Made by a program: the position numbers and the translations under genes. This document shows positions 1 through 10,150 of a DNA stretch of 64,000 nt, one piece after another. The notes under the pieces were generated by a model. The model was not told the DNA's origin, made no database searches, and saw only the letters and a program-made list of their open reading frames with translations. The DNA comes from Octopus vulgaris (lineage: Eukaryota), in assembly GCA_951406725.2 (NCBI GenBank), contig OX597819.1, positions 23,436,001 to 23,500,000 on the forward strand, given 5' to 3'. Position 1 is the first letter of the stretch; each line of letters opens with the position of its first letter.

Positions 1-296
1 ACCTCTTAATGAAAGCTACAATTAATTTACAATAGAGCATGAATTACACATGACATTTTAAAAACATCATTAATTAACATTGCCGCTTTTTCTCGTTTCC
101 CAAAATTAATTTTCATGCATGGCTTTGCAGTATTTGTTCCACTCTCTCCACGACCGTATCTGATTTCCTTGTTTCAATAGTATAATTAAACTGTATAGAG
201 AGATCTCACAGAATCCTGTAGCTATCATTCACAACCAAGGTCTCTGGTTCGTTTTCATGTCACTTTCCCATCTCTTCAAACGCACAGGCTTAGTTT

Positions 297-563
297 TGGA
301 GGCATTTAACTTAGTGTTTATTGTGTTTGACTCATGATTCTAAGATTGTGGTTTCGATTCCTGGACCCGGCGATGCGTTGTAATCTTGTGTAAAACGCTT
401 CATTTCACATTGCCCCAGTTCACTCAGCTGTTAAAAATGAGTAACCCTACCACGGACTGGCGTCCCATTCAGGTGAAGAATTTATAGGCCACAGAAACCG
501 GGAGACCGGTCCCGGCCCCTATGAGCCGCCATAACTCGAGAAGGAAACTTTACCTCACCTTTC
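297..563 (+). mobile_element. tRNA-derived SINE (family D head, CORE-like middle)
   Basis: Degenerate A box, B box GTTTCGATTCC, then CTTGTGTAAAACGCTT and CACTCAGCTG..AATGAGTA. Related heads at 13920-14160, 19340-19570 and 48165-48490. Confidence 0.7.
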
Positions 564-711
564 TACAGGTATGTTTAACATTCCAAAGCAGTTTGTTACA
601 GATACACTCATGCCTGTGTTTATGTCGTATTTTGTGCAAGCCCACTGCACTTACTTAGAAGGTAGTTAATGCTTACGTCCCCTTTTCCTCACATGTTGCG
701 CTTGCAGTATA

Positions 712-888
712 CGAGGGGGTATTGGTTGGAGGTCCAACCTCTCGAGTTCTTTTACAGGGCTTAGAAAAACTGAAGAACCGCTGCAATAAATGTGTGAATC
801 TGAGAGGGGAATATTTTGAATAAAATCATAAACTTATTCTCTTGTATTTTCTTTTGCCCAAAGCCAGGAACCTTTCAGCACCCCCTCG
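712..888 (+). mobile_element. mariner-derived MITE, copy 1
   Basis: TA followed by CGAGGGGGT; ends AAAGCCAGGAACCTTTCAGCACCCCCTCG. Retains the transposase C-terminus (..GLEKLKNRCNKCVNLRGEYFE*). Confidence 0.75.
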
Positions 889-891
889 CGC

Positions 892-944
<53 letters not shown>

Positions 945-962
945 CGTGTGTGTACAGAAATA

Positions 963-1179
963 CGTATGGGTACTGAACACTTTCTGGCTTTAAGGATGTT
1001 GCAAAAGGCTTGGTTGGAGGCCCAAACTTTCGAGTTCTTTTACAGGGTTTAGAAAATCTGAAGGACACCTGCAATAAATGTGTGAATCTGAGGGGGGAAT
1101 ATGTTGAATAAAATTCTAATCAACTGATTCTCTTATGTTTTCTTTTGCCCAAAGCCAGGAACCTTTCAGCACCCCTTCG
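963..1179 (+). mobile_element. mariner-derived MITE, copy 2
   Basis: Direct paralog of 712-888 with imperfect TIRs and TA flanks. Confidence 0.75.
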
Positions 1180-1189
1180 TAACCGAGTT

Positions 1190-1860
1190 TTATTAATAAT
1201 TATCTTTATCAAATTCATACTGATGTCTTAAAGACAATTATTTGCATGTCATTAATTAGCGAGTCTTGTTGGTATTTTTCTGACAAAACCATCGTTATTC
1301 ACTTCCAGCATTCTTAGTTTGTTGCGTGAATTGGTTATGGAGTTCCTTCTTTTTCCAGCCATTTGCCCTATCTTTCTTCTTTCTATTCCTGAAATTTTTC
1401 ACAATCTCAGTTACCTCTATATTCCTCACAATATACAACGTAGTTTTTCAAATCCAAAATCGCAGTATTAGTTTTTCCTGCATAATATTAAACTTCTATT
1501 TCCTTCCCATTATGGTAAATAGATCTTGTCGATATTATTATGAAAGTGGCGAGCATAATGTATTGAGGGTGACTTTCTTGATTTTTGCCTATTTCTTGTA
1601 GCTCTTTATTCAGTGTAGAAAAAGGGCAGAGTACCTCAACATTGGCAGAGTCCACGTAGTCGTGGTTTTAATGATATAACCAATTATTTTTGTATCAACC
1701 ATCTTTTCAACCCCTTTTTTTTGTACTCTTTAGAGACTTTCTCATTTCCCTTTCCATTACATCACTCCCAGGTACTTCAGTCTCTTCTTCCAATGATCTA
1801 ATGATATCATCTTGTGGTATTTTATCTCATCAGATTTCATCCTTCGAACTCTCATCACGA
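1190..1860 (-). pseudogene. degraded R4/Dong-clade LINE, region downstream of the RT core
   Basis: Frameshifted minus-strand motifs LKYLGV, TWTLPMLRYSA, NIDKIYLP*WEGNRSL (cf. DIDRLYLPRxxGGRGL) and WKKKELHNQF. Confidence 0.7.
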
Positions 1861-2022
1861 TTCATAAAGCACACTTTTGCTCACCCACTCACACACACAC
1901 ACACACACACACACACAAGAAAAATACCGCATATCAATATCCTAGCTAAATATTCTTACAGCTTGTAAAAGAAAATCCAGGTAGAGGAAGTTTCAGTATT
2001 GGCGTATAGAATAATCCTTTCT

Positions 2023-2231
2023 TATTTCTTTATTGCCCACAAAGGGCTAAACACAAAGGGATTAAGCCGATTACATCCACCCCAGTGCGTAACTGGTACT
2101 TGATTTATCGACCTCGAAAGGATGAAAGGCAAAGTCAACTTCGGCTGAATTTGAACTCAGGACATAACGGCAGAAAAAATACCGCTAAGCATTACGCCCA
2201 GCGTGCTAACGTTTCTGCCAGCTCGCCGCCT
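2023..2231 (-). mobile_element. SINE family A (tail 1), inserted in the tail of the adjacent copy
   Basis: Head GGCGGCGAGCTGGCAG, B box GAGTTCAAATTC, central GCCTTTCATCCTTTCG..GATAAA..AGTACCAG. Duplication GAATAATCCTTTCT on both sides. Confidence 0.85.
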
Positions 2232-2239
2232 TGTGGAAT

Positions 2240-2456
2240 AATCCTTTCTACTATAATGCACAAGGCCTGAAATTTCTGGGGAGGAAGCCAGTCGATTAGA
2301 TCGACCGCAGTACGGAACTGGTACTTAATTTATCGACCCCGAAAGGATGAAAGGTAAAGTCGACCTCGGCGGAATTTGAACTCAGAACGTAGCAATGGGC
2401 GAAACACCGCAAAGCATTTTGTCCAGCATGCTAACGATTCTGCCAACTCGCCGCCT
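2240..2456 (-). mobile_element. SINE family A (tail 2)
   Basis: Same head and centre, tail ..CAGGCCTTGTG..ATAGTAGAAAGGATT. TSD-like GTATAGAATAAT at about 2004 and 2465. Confidence 0.85.
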
Positions 2457-2555
2457 TTTTTTGTGTATAGAATAATGTCAACAATATATAGTATTTGATG
2501 CATTTCCCCTCTTCTTACCAAATTGTAAACATGTCTTGCTTCTTTTTATACACAA

Positions 2556-2947
2556 CTAGCAGTATCGCCCGGCGTTGCTCGGGTTTGTAAGGGAAATAAT
2601 TATATAAGCATTTTTAGAGATGTAAAGTATAATAGCTATCTCAATATGGCTAACCACAAAGGGGGAGGGGTGTTACTGTAGCTTTTTACGTTCTGAGATT
2701 TAATAATAAATTTTAGAGAGTTACTTCCCTTATATATGTCAAAAATGGATTAAAAATGGGAAAAATTGATGGTAATTTTTTTTTAAATCGTAGACTCATC
2801 GTAGATGCGCGCTAATACCCAGACGGTCTCGATATGAATCACGACTATAAGATACCCGGTTTTGGTTAAACTGCACCGCAAAATGTGGGAGTAGTTAGGA
2901 ATCTAAATCGTAGGAGACAGACACACAACCTCACTTTTATATATAAA
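2556..2947 (-). mobile_element. non-autonomous Helitron
   Basis: Minus-strand 3' end CCCGAGCAACGCCGGG hairpin followed by CTAG|T. Paralogs at 19576 and 40439. Confidence 0.8.
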
Positions 2948-3012
2948 TATTTCCTCTATTTACATAATATTGAGGTCTCTTTCTTTCTTTTGTTATCTTA
3001 CTGTTTTTACCA

Positions 3013-3061
<49 letters not shown>

Positions 3062-3390
3062 TATATATAGTTACAGAGATGTACTTGCATAGCAAGTGAC
3101 TTGATCTGAGATCGTGTGCTGGAACGAAAACAGTTGCAGCGTTGAAGGTGTTTATAAGCCATTTAAGAAACACACAAAAACCGTTAGATTCACTTCAACA
3201 TTTAAATTTAATTTGTCAAAATATTTTCGTCGCTTTGAGACCGCGACCTGTTAGCACGATATTTTGGCAGTGAACAGGTCGCGGTCTCAAAGCGAGGAAA
3301 ATATTTTGGCAAATTAAATTTAAATGTTGAAGTGAATCTAACGGTTTTTGTGTGTTTCTTAAATGGCTTACAAACACCTTCCACGCTGCA
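2948..3390. mobile_element. Penelope-like terminal-repeat fragment with inverted duplication
   Basis: About 118-bp inverted arms at 3135-3252 and 3273-3390 containing a hammerhead-like motif. Older copies at about 24020-24210 and 24850-25040. Confidence 0.6.
3262..3313 (+). ncRNA. minimal type-I hammerhead-like motif with G3-C8 core
   Basis: UUUGGCA GUGAACA G GUCGC-loop-GCGAG GAAA AUAUU U UGGCAAA. Confidence 0.55.
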
Positions 3391-3469
3391 ATATATATAC
3401 ACACACATATATATATATGTATGTATGTATGTATGTGTGTATATGTGTATGCATGTATGTGTGTGTGTG

Positions 3470-3690
3470 CGTGTCTGTGCTTGTGATTGTCCTCCACCAC
3501 TGCTTGACAACGAATGTTGGTTTGTTTACATCCCTGTCACCTAGTGGTTTGACAAAGGAAACAGATAGAATAAGTACAATGCTTACAAAAATAAAACTGG
3601 AGTTGATTCATTAAACTACAATTCTTCAAGGCATTGCCCCAGCATGGCCACAGACCAATGGCTGGAAAAAGCAGAAGAATAAAAGAATAC
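3470..3690 (+). mobile_element. SINE family B, 3' half
   Basis: GCTTGACAAC..GATAGAATAAGTAC..CAGCATGGCC tail. Confidence 0.75.
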
Positions 3691-3754
3691 ATTCTCTGCT
3701 TTGGTCTTATGTTCAAGGCATGAGAAAGCTTGAGTTTACATGAGAAGGCCTAAC

Positions 3755-4047
3755 AGACCTGGTAGAAACAGCAGCCAGATCTCCCTCAAATCACACCTTA
3801 CTGTCTTATGTATGTATATATATATGAGCCAATGAGGGGGACCTCTACATGGTAGCTAGACCTGGTAGAAATAGCAGCCAAATTTCCCCCAAATCACACC
3901 TTACTGTCTTATCTATGTATATATGTATGTATGAGCCTATGAGGGAGACCCCTACATGGCAGCTAGACATGGTAGAAATAGCAGCCAAATCTCCCTCAAA
4001 TCACACCTTACTGTATTATGTATGTATATATATATATATACAAGCCA
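3755..4047 (+). repeat. tandem repeat, about 105-bp unit x about 2.8
   Basis: Units start at 3755, 3858 and 3965 (AGACCTGGTAGAAATAGCAGCCAAATCTCCCTCAAATCACACCTTACTGT). Confidence 0.9.
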
Positions 4048-4191
4048 CTACGGTTATTTAATGTAAAGTCTTCCTCAAATCACTCTCGCTATTTACTCTC
4101 TTCCAAGAACATTTTCACTCACTCTTATCTCTTAGCTTGCCATACATTTTACTCATGTATCTATCAGCGTGATAGACAGAAACAAATATTA

Positions 4192-4233
4192 CATCGCCAT
4201 CGCCATCGCCATCGCCATCGCCATCGCCATCGC
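4192..4233 (+). repeat. (CATCGC)7 hexanucleotide microsatellite
   Basis: Read directly. Confidence 0.95.
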
Positions 4234-4401
4234 ATTATATTGTCTACCTGTCAACACACACACAGTGAATTACTTTCATTTTATTTGTTGCACACTGTGT
4301 GTGTGCGTGTGGTGTAAACCACATTAAGAAAAGCATTTGACATACACACCAGAATGTGAGTTTTCTGTAAATTTGGCTTAATTGGAGTTTAAATTTTAAA
4401 A

Positions 4402-4534
4402 ACTGGACCTGGCATGACCCGATGCATTCTATTCTTAAAAATGCTAGGTAAATTGTAATTGAAGAAATCCTATATTGTAGATTTCTATAACTGACAAAGG
4501 GAGGCAGATAAAATCTACCTTTTATAATAAGAGA
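4402..4534 (-). mobile_element. possible short non-autonomous Helitron
   Basis: Minus strand begins TCTCTTATTATAAAAGG (Helitron-like TC start); 3' end is degenerate. Confidence 0.35.
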
Positions 4535-5221
4535 TATCTTGTCAAAAAATTCTGTCGTCTTTTCACACCAATCCGTTCGTGCTCGTTCAATCTGCTTGAA
4601 AAAGCTACGAAATCTTCTACATGTTGTATCCTACTACCTTTTAAAAAATGAGTGAAACATCAAATACCTATGAAAAGATTATTTCGGAACAGCATGAACA
4701 CATTTGATTGTAGATCTTGTGGATCATCACTGACTTGGGAGTCGGACAATAACAAAACTAATGAGTTTTCAGCAAGAACAATAAATTTTACGTTTCACTG
4801 AAGAGGTCTAATAAAATGCGAGCATGTATTGAGTTGCCTCCCGTACTTACTTAAGGGATTAAAAATTAAAATAAGATTAGAGTTTATATTGTCTCTCCTT
4901 CACTGCATACGTACTCTTTGAATTTCATTTCATTAAATATATTTACATTATCTTAACTATTGCTTTTATGGAGTCCCTGAAAAATCTACGTCAGTGATAT
5001 ATTTTTTAAATATATTGTCACTGACTCAAAGGCTCTAGATTAAAAAGGCTTGTTTTTTGCAGAAGATTGTTGCCTTCGCTACATTCCAGAGAATGCTTAT
5101 CTTTTACTCCCCTCTGGGTGCAAACATTTACAAGTGACCATTGTCTAGTCTAGCTGATGCATAATGAAGCTAATGTACCCCTTTTATTTCCAGCACATAA
5201 CGTTTCGTGCTCCCCGAATAT

Positions 5222-5420
5222 TGGCACGTGGTCAGCAATTCCAAGAGTGGAGTCAAGTCGATTAGATTAACCCCAGTATTCAACTGGTACTTATTTTATC
5301 GATCCCGAAAGGATGTAAGGCAAAGCCGACCTCGGCAGAATTTGAACTCAGAACGTAAAGAGGGACGAAATGCCGCTAAGCATTTGGCCCGACGTTCTTA
5401 CGATTCTGTCAGCTCACCAT
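5222..5420 (-). mobile_element. SINE family A
   Basis: Matches the family A consensus. Confidence 0.8.
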
Positions 5421-6568
5421 CTTATGTTGCGCGAATACTGGTGCTTCATATCAGTTAATAGATCGGAACACTGCTATTTCTGTGATAAATACACCTAGCA
5501 GCAAATACACTTCAGCTTTGATCTTGCAAAGATTTAAGTGGATATCTGATGACATTCTCCTAGGTGTATCCTCCACAGCGTCCGCACAGCCAAAGCTCAT
5601 AATCCGAAATGTGGCTCGTTCATATCTATGCTACAACAAGCAGCGCAGATAAGCTACACCTACAACCGCACTCGGAGTTATCATCCTCCACCAACAACTA
5701 AACAGTGTTGTATCTCCAATGCATTGTGTTAATGACGACCATAAGAAAATCAAAGACTGTATCTGTGCATTGCGTACCCTCCTTGCTTTCTCCTCCAAAG
5801 TCATAGAATCATCTCAGTTCTTTCCTAGACTCTTCCTACTTATTACTCCTTGATCAACATCGAGCTGTAGATAGCACACCTATTGTTAAAGATATCACAT
5901 GTGATGGGCCGTTCATTTTTTTTTTCCTATCCATGTGTACAACAAAATTCAACACAAACTCTCTTTTTTGCCTTCACATAGAGCCAGGTGTTAATATCTA
6001 TTTGGCAACGGGCCAACGAGTTGAGTCTCTCGTTGAGTCTAATGAAATAGCAGCCGATTTTCCCTCATATCACTTCTACCATCTGAAGAATGAATAGCTC
6101 AATGGATAACGATCTAATTCTTCACTTAGAAGCCTGGAAAAGACGGATATTATCCGCAAGAAACCTAAACACTTCAAACCAGACATCCACTCAAGTAGAA
6201 AACATTCCCCAATTGGAGAAATGCAACGTACTTTTGTCCAAAGCATATTGATACAACCACGCACATATCAAGGAAATAATTTTCAAGATACATTCACTCT
6301 CTATGTACAAGACACAAAGCTATCAATGTTGCTTAAATTCCAAACCTCGTAAAAGAAAGCAGCAAGAATATAAAGTTTCATCTGTGGATGAATAAAAGCA
6401 ATATTTAGGCAGGCATTTAAATAACAAAGGAGATCATAAAAGTGATTCAGACTGGATATAAAAGTTGCGAGTACGATTTCAAATCTCAACAAAATAAAGC
6501 CACATAGATTTACGCAAACACATACGAATATGCACACATGCACATACCAATGAACGCGCACTCACAAA

Positions 6569-6611
<43 letters not shown>

Positions 6612-7276
6612 TCTTTCTCTCTTCCCCACTCACATGCATTCTTTCACATCCATACAACAACATTAATACAGAACTAAAAACAAAAACAGCTGCACCTGAA
6701 GCTGTCTATCTTAGAGTGAAAAGAGGGCGTGCCATTGATGATGTCGCGAATGCCGAAGAAAGGACTTCGACAGACATAACTGATTGATTAATTGCATGAT
6801 TAACCAAACACTCAATTAGATAATTTAGCTAAATAGTTAACCAATTGATGAATAATAAAGAAGGGGAAGAGAACCAATGGGTGTGTTTATTATTGGCATA
6901 ATGACCCTCTCAAGATACAATAAAATATTAAAGAGAGTTAAGAGTATACCAAATTAAAATGTCACAGAGCCAGATCTACTTCTGGCTTAAAATCTTTGTG
7001 ACTATGAACTAACACTTACCAAAATACATTGCTAAAGCTTTTAATGAAATTTTAATTTCATAAGAGACAAAAAACGTAGTTGTTATGGAAACAGAGAAGG
7101 CAAAAGGAATCGGAGTTTTGCTGCTTCTGTGAAAATTACTTGCAGGTTGATAGCTTCTTCGATATACTAAGGAACAGAATAAAGAATAGAAGCGATGTTA
7201 TAGATTAACAAAATAATATTTCAAAACTGGGTGAATAGGAAATCGAACCGACCAACGGAATTAAAGAACAAAAAAA

Positions 7277-8176
7277 ACCAAGAGCGCTCAGAGAACGCAA
7301 ACCTCCGTCAAGGCAACACCAACGTCCAGTGGTGGTGCAATGGCCCAGTGGTTAGGGCAGCGCACTCGCGGTCGTAAGAACGCAGTTTCGATTGCCAGAC
7401 CAGGCAATGTGAGTGTTTATTGAGCAAAAACACCTAAGCTCCACGAGTTTCCGGCAGGGGGCCGGTGGTGAACCCCTCTGTACTCTTTCACCACAACTTT
7501 CTTCCACTCTTACTTCCTACTTCTGCTACAAAGCAGAAGAACTATGGTGTGGTAAACTTTCAGACCCTAGTCTAGATTACGAATTCTCTGTACCCCAGGA
7601 TGGTTCAGCTCTCCACCCGTTACAAGCCACCGTTTACGAAATGAGGATAACAACGTAGCTTTCGCGCCCGTGCAACCGCCAGTCTATCGCGTGTGGCGGG
7701 TAGATTTTCAAGTTGCCACACGCATTCTTAGTAGCTTATAGTAGGATCGAATTAGAGATTACTCTTTATGGCTAATGGGCGTGAGTCCTGATTGGAAGAA
7801 GAAGAAGAAGAAGAAGAAGAAGAAGAAGAAGAAGAAGAAGAAGACACCAACGTCCTCTCAACGATTAGCTGGAGATGATTTTTTAAAATGAGAATATCTG
7901 AAATAAACTCGATTACTCTCACAAACGAGAATATTAAAAATGAACCCGACCGCTCTCAAAAGTTAAGTAAAAAAAAAACTGAAAAATAATCCAGAATCCT
8001 TTTCCGGTACTGGATCGATACCAAAATTTAATCAGCTCGTGCCAGTCCCGAGTCCAAAGATCCCTGAAAGTTTAATCCGAATCCATCCAGCGGTTCTTGA
8101 GATATCTTATCCACGGACAGACAAACAAACAAACACGACTGAAAATAATACCCCGCCTTAGCGAAGGCGGTGGTAA
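7277..8176. mobile_element. Helentron/HINE-like non-autonomous element, interrupted at 7328-7843
   Basis: Subterminal inverted motifs ACCTCCGTCAAGG / AAGGCGGTGGT, terminal hairpin CCGCCTT-AGCG-AAGGCGG, internal (ACAA)n, A-run flanks. Confidence 0.6.
7328..7843 (+). mobile_element. chimeric SINE: family C head plus unrelated tail ending in (GAA)n
   Basis: 12-bp TSD ACACCAACGTCC at 7316-7327 and 7844-7855; (GAA)n at 7795-7843. Confidence 0.8.
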
Positions 8177-8303
8177 AAAAAAAAAACGAAAGGCTTATGA
8201 CGACTCGTTTTTAGATTCTGTGAGAATACCTGGAAATATTTTGGCACCCATAATGAAATACAAATGTTCCTTTATACGTAAGAACAGTTGTTGACGTACC
8301 ACA

Positions 8304-8352
<49 letters not shown>

Positions 8353-8403
8353 CGTGGTAGTGGTGGTGGTGGTGGTGGTGGTGGTGGTGGTGGTTTTGGT
8401 GGT

Positions 8404-8462
<59 letters not shown>

Positions 8463-8600
8463 GGTGGTGGTGGTGATGGTGGTGGTGGTGGTGGTTTTGG
8501 TGGTGGTGGAAGCAGTAGCAGCAGCAGCAGTAGTAGTAATAGTAGTAGTAGTAGTAACAGCAGCAGCAGCAATAGGGCGGCGGCGGCGGCGGCTACGGCG
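8304..8600. repeat. compound triplet microsatellite (TAG)n/(TGG)n/(CAG)n/(CGG)n
   Basis: Read directly. Confidence 0.95.
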
Positions 8601-9023
8601 ACCTCTATAGTTAAAAATCAATAGCACCGTAGTATCATTTTAAATTTATTAAAAAGAAACTATGATAAATGTAGTTGTATTGTTAGCTCCAAAGTTAATG
8701 GGCTCGAAGCAGTGGCCAAAAACTGTCTTCATTCGACTCCGTAAGTTATTGATTTTTTTTTTCTCCTCTCAAAATCATTTAATTCCAAAGCGTAGAAAAA
8801 TAATGCAATTTTAATGAAGTATTTGTTTTCGTCTGAATTGAAAAACAGTTTGAATAGAAAACCAACAGTTGACTTCTGAGTCGATAAAGAGTTGACCAAC
8901 GAGTTTAGGGAGTCAGTCTCCAACACTGGCTCATTATTTTCTCCATAGCTAAAATAAGGTAATATTGCTCTCTGCAATACAATACTATGAAGTGAGTTAC
9001 AAGCAGTGAATTACAATGTATAA

Positions 9024-9231
9024 ATCTTTTCTACTCTAGGCACAAGGCCCGAAATTTCTGGGGAGGATGCCAGTCGATTAGATCGACCTCAGTATGCAAC
9101 TGGTACTTAATTTATCGACCCCGAAAGGATGAAAGGCAAAGTCGACCTCGGCGGAATTTGAACTCAGAACGTAAAGACAGACGAAATACCGCTAAGCATC
9201 TCGCCCGGCGTGCTAACGATTCTGCCAGCTC
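9024..9231 (-). mobile_element. SINE family A (tail 2)
   Basis: Matches the family A consensus. Confidence 0.85.
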
Positions 9232-9361
9232 AAATGACGTGTATCACATTGGTTTGTAGTTTACTTGGAATATTAGACCGAAGGAAGAGTTTATTGAAGT
9301 GAGGAATATTTATTATCAATTTTTCAAGGAGTTTCTCTAGGAATTAACAAATAATCGACTC

Positions 9362-9568
9362 GCTTTTGGTTTTCACTTGTTTTAGTCATTGGATTGCGGC
9401 CATGCTGGTGCACCGCGTTAGAGGATTTAGTCGAACAATTCGACACAGTACTTATTCTTTAAAGTTTGGTGCTTTCCTATCGATCTCTTTCGCCGAAACG
9501 CTAGATTCCCGGGACGTAAACAAACGAACACAGGTTGTCAAGCGCTTGCGGGATACAGACACAAATAC

Positions 9569-9570
<2 letters not shown>
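9362..9570 (-). mobile_element. SINE family B, 3' half
   Basis: Matches the family B tail. Confidence 0.75.
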
Positions 9571-9620
<50 letters not shown>

Positions 9621-9634
9621 GCGTGCGCTTGTGA

Positions 9635-10150
9635 TAGAACAAACAATAGAGAGGGAAACAACAGGTGTCTGTTGAGATTATGACACATTTATACAGTATA
9701 TAAGGAGTATAAATAGCAGGAAGTTCTTAATAGTTGGAAGTTCTTAATAGTTGAATATAGTTAGGTAGATTATTTAAACTGAAAGAAACTGCGTATATTC
9801 ACCCTAACAGCTGTTTCAAGATTAGTTGCGTAATCGTTTTCTTCTATTATAAATAATTCAGTTTGACCAGTACAACACCTATAGTGTGTCTTCATTTAAG
9901 CAACTATCACGTCTAGGCATTTAAAGTTGGAGTTTAGGCACAAATCCGACTTGAACACTAACGGCATGTACCTATTAACTTACGTCATTTTCGCGTCGTA
10001 TTACCCACAATGCAGTAATGTGTTACCCTAATGATCCATTGCTGTTAGGCATACAAATACATTTGGAGGATCCAAAGTTGAGTTCCAAACAGCTGCAATC
10101 GTGAAATTTACGTAGGAATTGAATATTTGTACTGGGGGTTATCTTAATCT
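9635..10150. mobile_element. probable Penelope-like fragment
   Basis: Minus-strand GAAACAGCTGTTAGGG (palindromic helix-III half of a hammerhead) and a PTLN-like ORF-end motif. Confidence 0.35.

Follow-up and report, generated by a model that had tools for sequence, protein, structure and literature searches.

Metazoan Penelope-like elements carry minimal type I hammerhead ribozymes in their terminal repeats (pLTRs), and the account of these motifs by Cervera and de la Pena (2014, PMC4209133) gives CUGANGA as the consensus core and U3-A8 as the sole named covariant. The pair between positions 3 and 8 is reported to form solely in the active fold (PMC3884650). Single mutants at either position are described as dead where the laboratory C3G/G8C variant is partly active (PMC11167929, PMC8495972, PMC3884650), and PMC11167929 and PMC8495972 describe a partial return of cleavage in the double mutant, a Penelope-type hammerhead included. 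Natural hammerheads with U3-A8 have been described by Perreault et al. (2011, PMC3088659) and from Cercyon elements (PMC4209133). The octopus family analysed here shares with the hammerheads of PMC4209133, as set out there, the type I layout, the extra letter between positions 9 and 10.1, G10.1-C11.1, a short palindromic helix III and presence in both pLTRs, but its core pair is G3-C8.

A hammerhead variant on a Helitron-like carrier

The window, a 64,000-nucleotide stretch of Octopus vulgaris DNA, contains a decayed copy of the type I motif with a G3-C8 core at 3263..3313 on the plus strand, to which all of the following parts also belong; it was delimited from the sequence, a descriptor and the family form. 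Helix I is made up of seven letters at 3263-3269 (5' strand) and of 3307-3313 (3' strand). Core positions 3-9 read GTGAACA (3270..3276, with G3 at 3270 and C8 at 3275) and are followed by an extra G (3277), by helix II and loop II (3278..3296, strands 3278-3282 with 3292-3296), by GAA (3297-3299) and by 3300..3306, which holds the six-letter helix III palindrome AATATT (3300-3305) and T as N17 (3306). From hammerhead numbering, the predicted cut would fall after 3306. An earlier note on this DNA had listed helix I with one mismatch, GUGAACA, an extra purine, helix II, GAAA, a palindrome and a UUU site, and every one of these parts was recovered at 3263-3313. The hammerhead core letters U4 G5 A6 N7 .. 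A9, G12 A13 A14 A15.1, U16.1 and H17 are present in the window copy and in the family. The canonical letters C3 and G8 are absent from both, and we therefore count the motif as a hammerhead variant.

Two pairs of the window copy are broken, by G-G in helix I and by G-G at the closing pair 10.1-11.1, where the window has G at 3296 and the family has C; complete helices I and II with G10.1-C11.1 were thus not found in this copy. Its folding energy, computed alone, was no better than that of shuffles (z 0.04). A search of window positions 1-10000 with Rfam returned 42 matches up to E 10, with no hammerhead model among them. A loose G3-C8 descriptor, composed with knowledge of the site, had 3263-3313 as its sole match within the window and found any match in 4 of 200 dinucleotide shuffles (mean 0.02).

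The motif lies in a short pLTR insertion of the Penelope-like family (3253..3391, plus strand), which is slightly truncated at its 5' end and stops at the first of two family 3' end points. In front of it lies an inverted pLTR arm (3071..3252, minus strand) that extends to the second (tail) end point. The two arms form an inverted repeat in which 3134-3252 pairs with 3273-3391 over 119 nt (97%), the motif being placed at the inner edge. The note had credited the inverted arm with a perfect helix II partner and with UGACAAA for helix I; the arm does carry the intact helix II and the letters of the helix I 3' strand, yet it belongs to the other strand and is missing the 5' portion of the core. 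A read-through RNA of 3134-3391 was computed to fold into one long hairpin of -192.9 kcal/mol, a fold that would bury helices II and III together with the 3' strand of helix I.

Non-autonomous Helitrons are marked by a 5' TC, a 3' hairpin with CTAG, and a target between A and T. Both arms are borne by a non-autonomous Helitron-like element (2556..4534, minus strand) that has a 5' TC and a 3' CTAG and lies between A and T, with a G+C-rich subterminal hairpin recognized from the sequence at 2568..2583 (minus strand). Inside it lie three tandem units of 103-107 nt each (3755..4039, plus strand), and a fragment at 3491-3589 is related to a dispersed SINE-like repeat (D6), copies of which occur in the window at 2033-2449, 5224-5415 and 9040-9231. 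The 2-kb carrier shares with non-autonomous Helitrons the 5' TC, the 3' hairpin with CTAG, the A-T target, captured fragments and tandem copies. All of the 30 best genomic matches (from 40 of 342 candidates scored) share sequence with the window from about 2555, many up to about 4535. The CTAG end was located in 28 of these 30 loci, each adjoining A on the plus strand, and the other end in 18, of which 17 adjoin T and one is tandem. Tandem copies of the element were seen at L005, L006, L018, L023 and L025, and head-to-head inverted dimers at L061:1500-5000 and L062:1700-5100. Motif pairs 2.7 kb apart, considered as full Penelope-like elements, proved to be inverted Helitron dimers and were rejected. 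Among 21 Helitron-borne copies, picked without regard to likeness to the window, the 10.1-11.1 pair was intact in 16 and carried the window's break in 4. Given its carriage by a Helitron and its burial in a long hairpin, the window copy is a decayed passenger, likely inactive, and therefore not the working unit of the family.

The G3-C8 family and its parent element

The intact motif form has 425 exact genomic copies (control 0), and the majority form of the family is fully paired in helices I and II; the repeat family with a natural G3-C8 core that the earlier note postulated does exist. A pattern with N7 and position 8 left free found 1294 copies, and the downstream anchor of the family 2910 matches, counting inverted and Helitron-borne arms. 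Family copies are 100-210 nt long and have AT-rich flanks. An inverted arm stands in front of 25 of 51 copies, and two 3' end points recur (short in 27, long in 22 of the 51). Short length, an inverted arm in front, an AT-rich flank and fixed ends are the features that PMC8557442 describes for Penelope-like insertions. One direct pair of copies lies 221 nt apart with an AT-rich flank between, and no retrozyme-type tandem array was present among the first 100 matches listed per motif search.

Constancy of the swapped pair could be judged from copies located by the downstream anchor, which is independent of the core. G3 was present in 33 and C8 in 32 of 34 such arms (63 arms minus Helitron-borne and core-truncated ones), the constancy that the note had wished to see checked. 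Copies found through an upstream anchor had the exact core in 24 of 41 cases, the remainder being scattered or unparsed. Loop II and CpG sites vary in the contigs of four organisms, whereas neither position 3 nor position 8 has a variant of at least 2%. Helix I pairing and GUGANCA, on which the note had staked its proposal, are both present in the majority form. The minimum free energy structures of parent and young copies contain helices I and II with G10.1-C11.1, with z values of -0.9 to -2.0 against shuffles.

The swap is kept in three G3-C8 subfamilies that can be told apart by loop II, by N7, by helix I and by the palindrome of helix III. G5, A6, A9, G12-A15.1 and U16.1 are invariant across the three, while loop II and N7 vary. 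The old subfamily, whose copies were first retrieved with a pattern in which G3 and C8 were mandatory, has G3-C8, C at N7, its own loop II, and G-C at helix I pair 6 where the young ones have U-A. The helix III palindrome has six letters in the young and parent forms and mostly four in the old subfamily, in which the four-letter palindrome is the commonest form yet occurs in only 9 of 22 parsed copies (of 31). A common A/G variant of helix I (23 versus 11 copies) retains pairing as U-G, and helix II is nearly invariant within the lineage. The matches to a broad G3-C8 pattern were dominated by an unrelated repeat that has no helix II; further independent G3-C8 families may therefore exist in this genome.

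The motif derives from the pLTR of a Penelope-like element, a link that the earlier note had drawn. In all 12 parent loci fetched (12 of 29 rows at >=75% identity, from the 75-87% identity group), a G3-C8 motif like that of the family but with a different loop II lies about 1 kb behind a reading frame with reverse transcriptase (RT) and GIY-YIG. At L221 the motif stands at both ends of the ORF, 4.26 kb apart. The parent ORF is a 1025-aa open frame with a C-terminal GIY-YIG domain over the Pfam cut-off (PF01541, E 1.8e-5); the Pfam model RVT_1 gave no match to it, and the RT was assigned from motifs visible in the alignment. Cysteines lie in the linker before GIY-YIG, where the Neptune criterion combines a Cys-rich linker with RT phylogeny. 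The architecture is Penelope-like, with pLTR-ORF-pLTR (L221), 5' inverted arms, a tail at one end and (TA)n targets.

The parent was reached from loose ends in RNA-like contigs, which led to an upstream motif that occurs 222 times in the genome; 40 loci of this motif were examined, and two of them led to reverse transcriptase frames. A protein search, in which 150 of 2140 candidates were scored, then yielded near-intact elements. The parent was not among the 30 loci retrieved when the genome was searched for the GIY-YIG family; that search brought up other families, with U3-A8. A guessed 5' extension of the family gave a single match only and was abandoned. Just upstream of the common 5' end, at L221:2695-2722 and L157-L196, we observed a motif resembling a branch point, a run of pyrimidines and AG, which could represent an initiator, the end of an intron, or the two at once. 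The first 660 nt of L188 hold, on the minus strand, the endonuclease frame of another Penelope-like type.

Origin of the swapped pair

A sister element with 54-58% protein identity has C3 and G8 at the homologous place (four loci); its position 9 is C, and pair 4 of its helix II is A-U instead of G-C. A metagenome scan gave two short relatives, one of which extends to its hammerhead; in the metagenome relative, at 41% protein identity, the hammerhead has the canonical C3-G8 pair and its helix III is palindromic. Because both the sister and the metagenome relative have C3-G8, the G3-C8 core was likely derived from C3-G8, and once. In sister elements C3-G8 is retained beside a nearly identical helix II, and positions 3 and 8 therefore changed together.

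A core-free search gave 340 matches, and a hand tally of the 100 listed yielded 65 C3-G8, 11 G3-C8, 3 G3-G8, 2 C3-C8 and 19 others, mostly one-step decay. The Fisher value on these counts, 2e-9, overstates the case because the rows represent two lineages. In 11 hand-picked rows the 3-8 pair was always Watson-Crick (G-C 7, C-G 4) and helix II pair 4 was G-C in 6 and A-U in 3; the covariation score was reached by 1 of 500 shuffles, and pairing was 92% against 1-50% in slid controls. Since this covariation comes down essentially to a single swap that separates two lineages, the counts are not independent. As for the covariation in helices I and II that the note had proposed to check, pairs change across families, but inside the G3-C8 lineage helix II is almost constant.

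Several related families were observed alongside. A young sister element (L233-L237, L231, L365) has an intact 1312-aa ORF with a long Asn-rich insertion, forms tandem arrays and carries C3-G8 with C9; C9 in a currently intact family suggests that the cores of these hammerheads tolerate damage. A further sister family (L357, L360, L362-L364, L366) has the canonical core and the same helix II; its helix I is imperfect beside the core, and an alternative match of six pairs lies farther upstream. Other Penelope-like families in the genome carry a U3-A8 core. Among them are abundant families (L072-L095, L096, L097) with a terminal U3-A8 hammerhead about 600-1000 nt behind the ORF and a palindromic helix III, and one U3-A8 family has many intact 781-aa RT + GIY-YIG frames and an upstream frame. 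Single hammerhead matches of further families, C3-G8 or U3-A8, were found at L077, L084 and L225.

Cleavage, copying and known systems

We consider it probable, at roughly 0.8, that the window holds a decayed, Helitron-borne copy of a Penelope pLTR hammerhead with G3-C8, that the family form likely cuts slowly as a dimer or with the help of the element's protein, and that the copy itself is likely inactive. On this reading the lineage's swap would have arisen from C3-G8, with selection on the 3-8 pair maintaining it since. Family copies end sharply about 20 nt before helix I, and 219 copies start with a G absent from the parent at that place; the element RNA may start about 20 nt before helix I, with the extra 5' G derived from a cap. 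Splicing from a first exon onto the shared 5' G was rejected, as the eight letters in front of that G are unconserved in 51 copies. Internally primed reverse transcription is described for an Anolis element (PMC11167929), and reverse transcription that is primed at the two tail sites within an uncut 5' repeat would cover no more than the first 150-210 nt of the element RNA and could yield the many copies of 100-210 nt. Copies span the predicted cut and only 1 of 63 arms, an inverted one, starts there, and the template was therefore presumably uncut RNA, as in the Anolis work. One short copy with a 5' inversion would then have been taken up by a Helitron and re-amplified.

Self-cleavage by the family form seems to us somewhat more likely than not. 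It is slightly better than an even chance that a self-cleaving natural G3-C8 lineage crossed a two-transversion valley in the core and was held by selection through several amplification waves. Cleavage, if any, would be slow and dependent on a partner or the element protein, because the swapped dimer is 2 kcal/mol worse by computed energy (-28.8 against -30.8 kcal/mol for two monomers) and the Anolis hammerhead is described as cutting only with protein present (PMC11167929). The contig rows listed showed no pile-up of loose ends at the cut; the RNA-like runs, whose type was guessed, contain the family as contigs and are silent on strand, ends and parent expression.

A possible, though less probable, alternative is that the hammerhead-derived motif no longer cleaves, its fold serving another job, such as protein binding or the shaping of the RNA 5' end, or drifting slowly, with changes that are compensated or neutral. 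The uncut template of the copies, A9C in the intact young sister family and an energy that does not favour the swapped dimer are consistent with this, as are the Anolis hammerhead mutants, which according to PMC11167929 have no effect on insertion in vitro, and the absence there of RNA-seq reads ending at the cut. A fold without cleavage accounts less readily for a restored pair that exists only in the active fold (PMC3884650), or for three subfamilies that vary in loop II and N7 yet all retain G5, A6, A9, G12-A15.1 and U16.1. Much less likely is that an overlapping signal such as a splice acceptor drove the swap. G3 closes a pyrimidine-rich CAG and C8 takes position -3 in another CAG, Drosophila Penelope introns are said in PMC4209133 to end at helix I, and a T-run and AG likewise stand at the core of a U3-A8 family of this genome; yet no joint occurs at either AG in four RNA-like runs (contigs only), none of 63 copies begins at AG behind a shared exon, and the RNA seems to start merely about 20 nt upstream. 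A chance look-alike inside an inverted repeat, with which the lack of an Rfam match to the window copy and the z values of window and family forms would agree, is highly improbable and is already contradicted by the sister alignment, in which sisters with a canonical core have the homologous position and nearly the same helix II, and by the location of the motif in pLTRs.

The G3-C8 lineage is a real natural variant of a known ribozyme in a known setting, well supported by its sister families and with predicted activity, and the window shows it in a decayed copy. A 3-8 pair that was swapped and then kept is evolutionary evidence for selection on the active fold, since the pair matters only there. 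One genome supplies matched natural constructs, with G3-C8, C3-G8, C3-G8 with A9C, and U3-A8. Descriptor searches have a blind spot: published scans, as described in PMC8557442, used a cuganga core string, in line with the expectation that CUGANGA-based searches miss the family. If the lineage is self-cleaving, it would serve as a natural experiment on whether cutting is required of Penelope hammerheads, and CUGANGA-based surveys would have missed whole ribozyme families, perhaps in some elements now called hammerhead-less.

Many pLTR hammerhead variants were reportedly collected by Lunse et al. 2017. An earlier natural G3-C8 example may stand there or in the alignments of PMC3088659; in the literature that we searched, which also covered PMC6765202, PMC8557442 and PMC13725137, G3-C8 occurred only in engineered variants (PMC11167929, PMC8495972, PMC3884650). 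With the hammerheads described in PMC4209133 the octopus family also shares thousands of solitary and inverted copies, and its helix I is longer (6-7 pairs). Non-LTR retrozymes, as described in a preprint (bioRxiv 10.64898/2026.07.22.740005), are likewise short, non-coding, pLTR-derived copies with a type I hammerhead, but form tandem arrays, whereas the octopus copies are dispersed, single or inverted. The reported natural U3-A8 hammerheads show, as the G3-C8 family does, a compensatory 3-8 change in nature; U3-A8 takes two transitions, presumably with a possible U-G wobble intermediate, whereas G3-C8 takes two transversions via a C-C or G-G mismatch. The laboratory C3G/G8C mutants have the same letters as the octopus family but were engineered, whereas the octopus family presents these letters, and a predicted activity, in a natural context.
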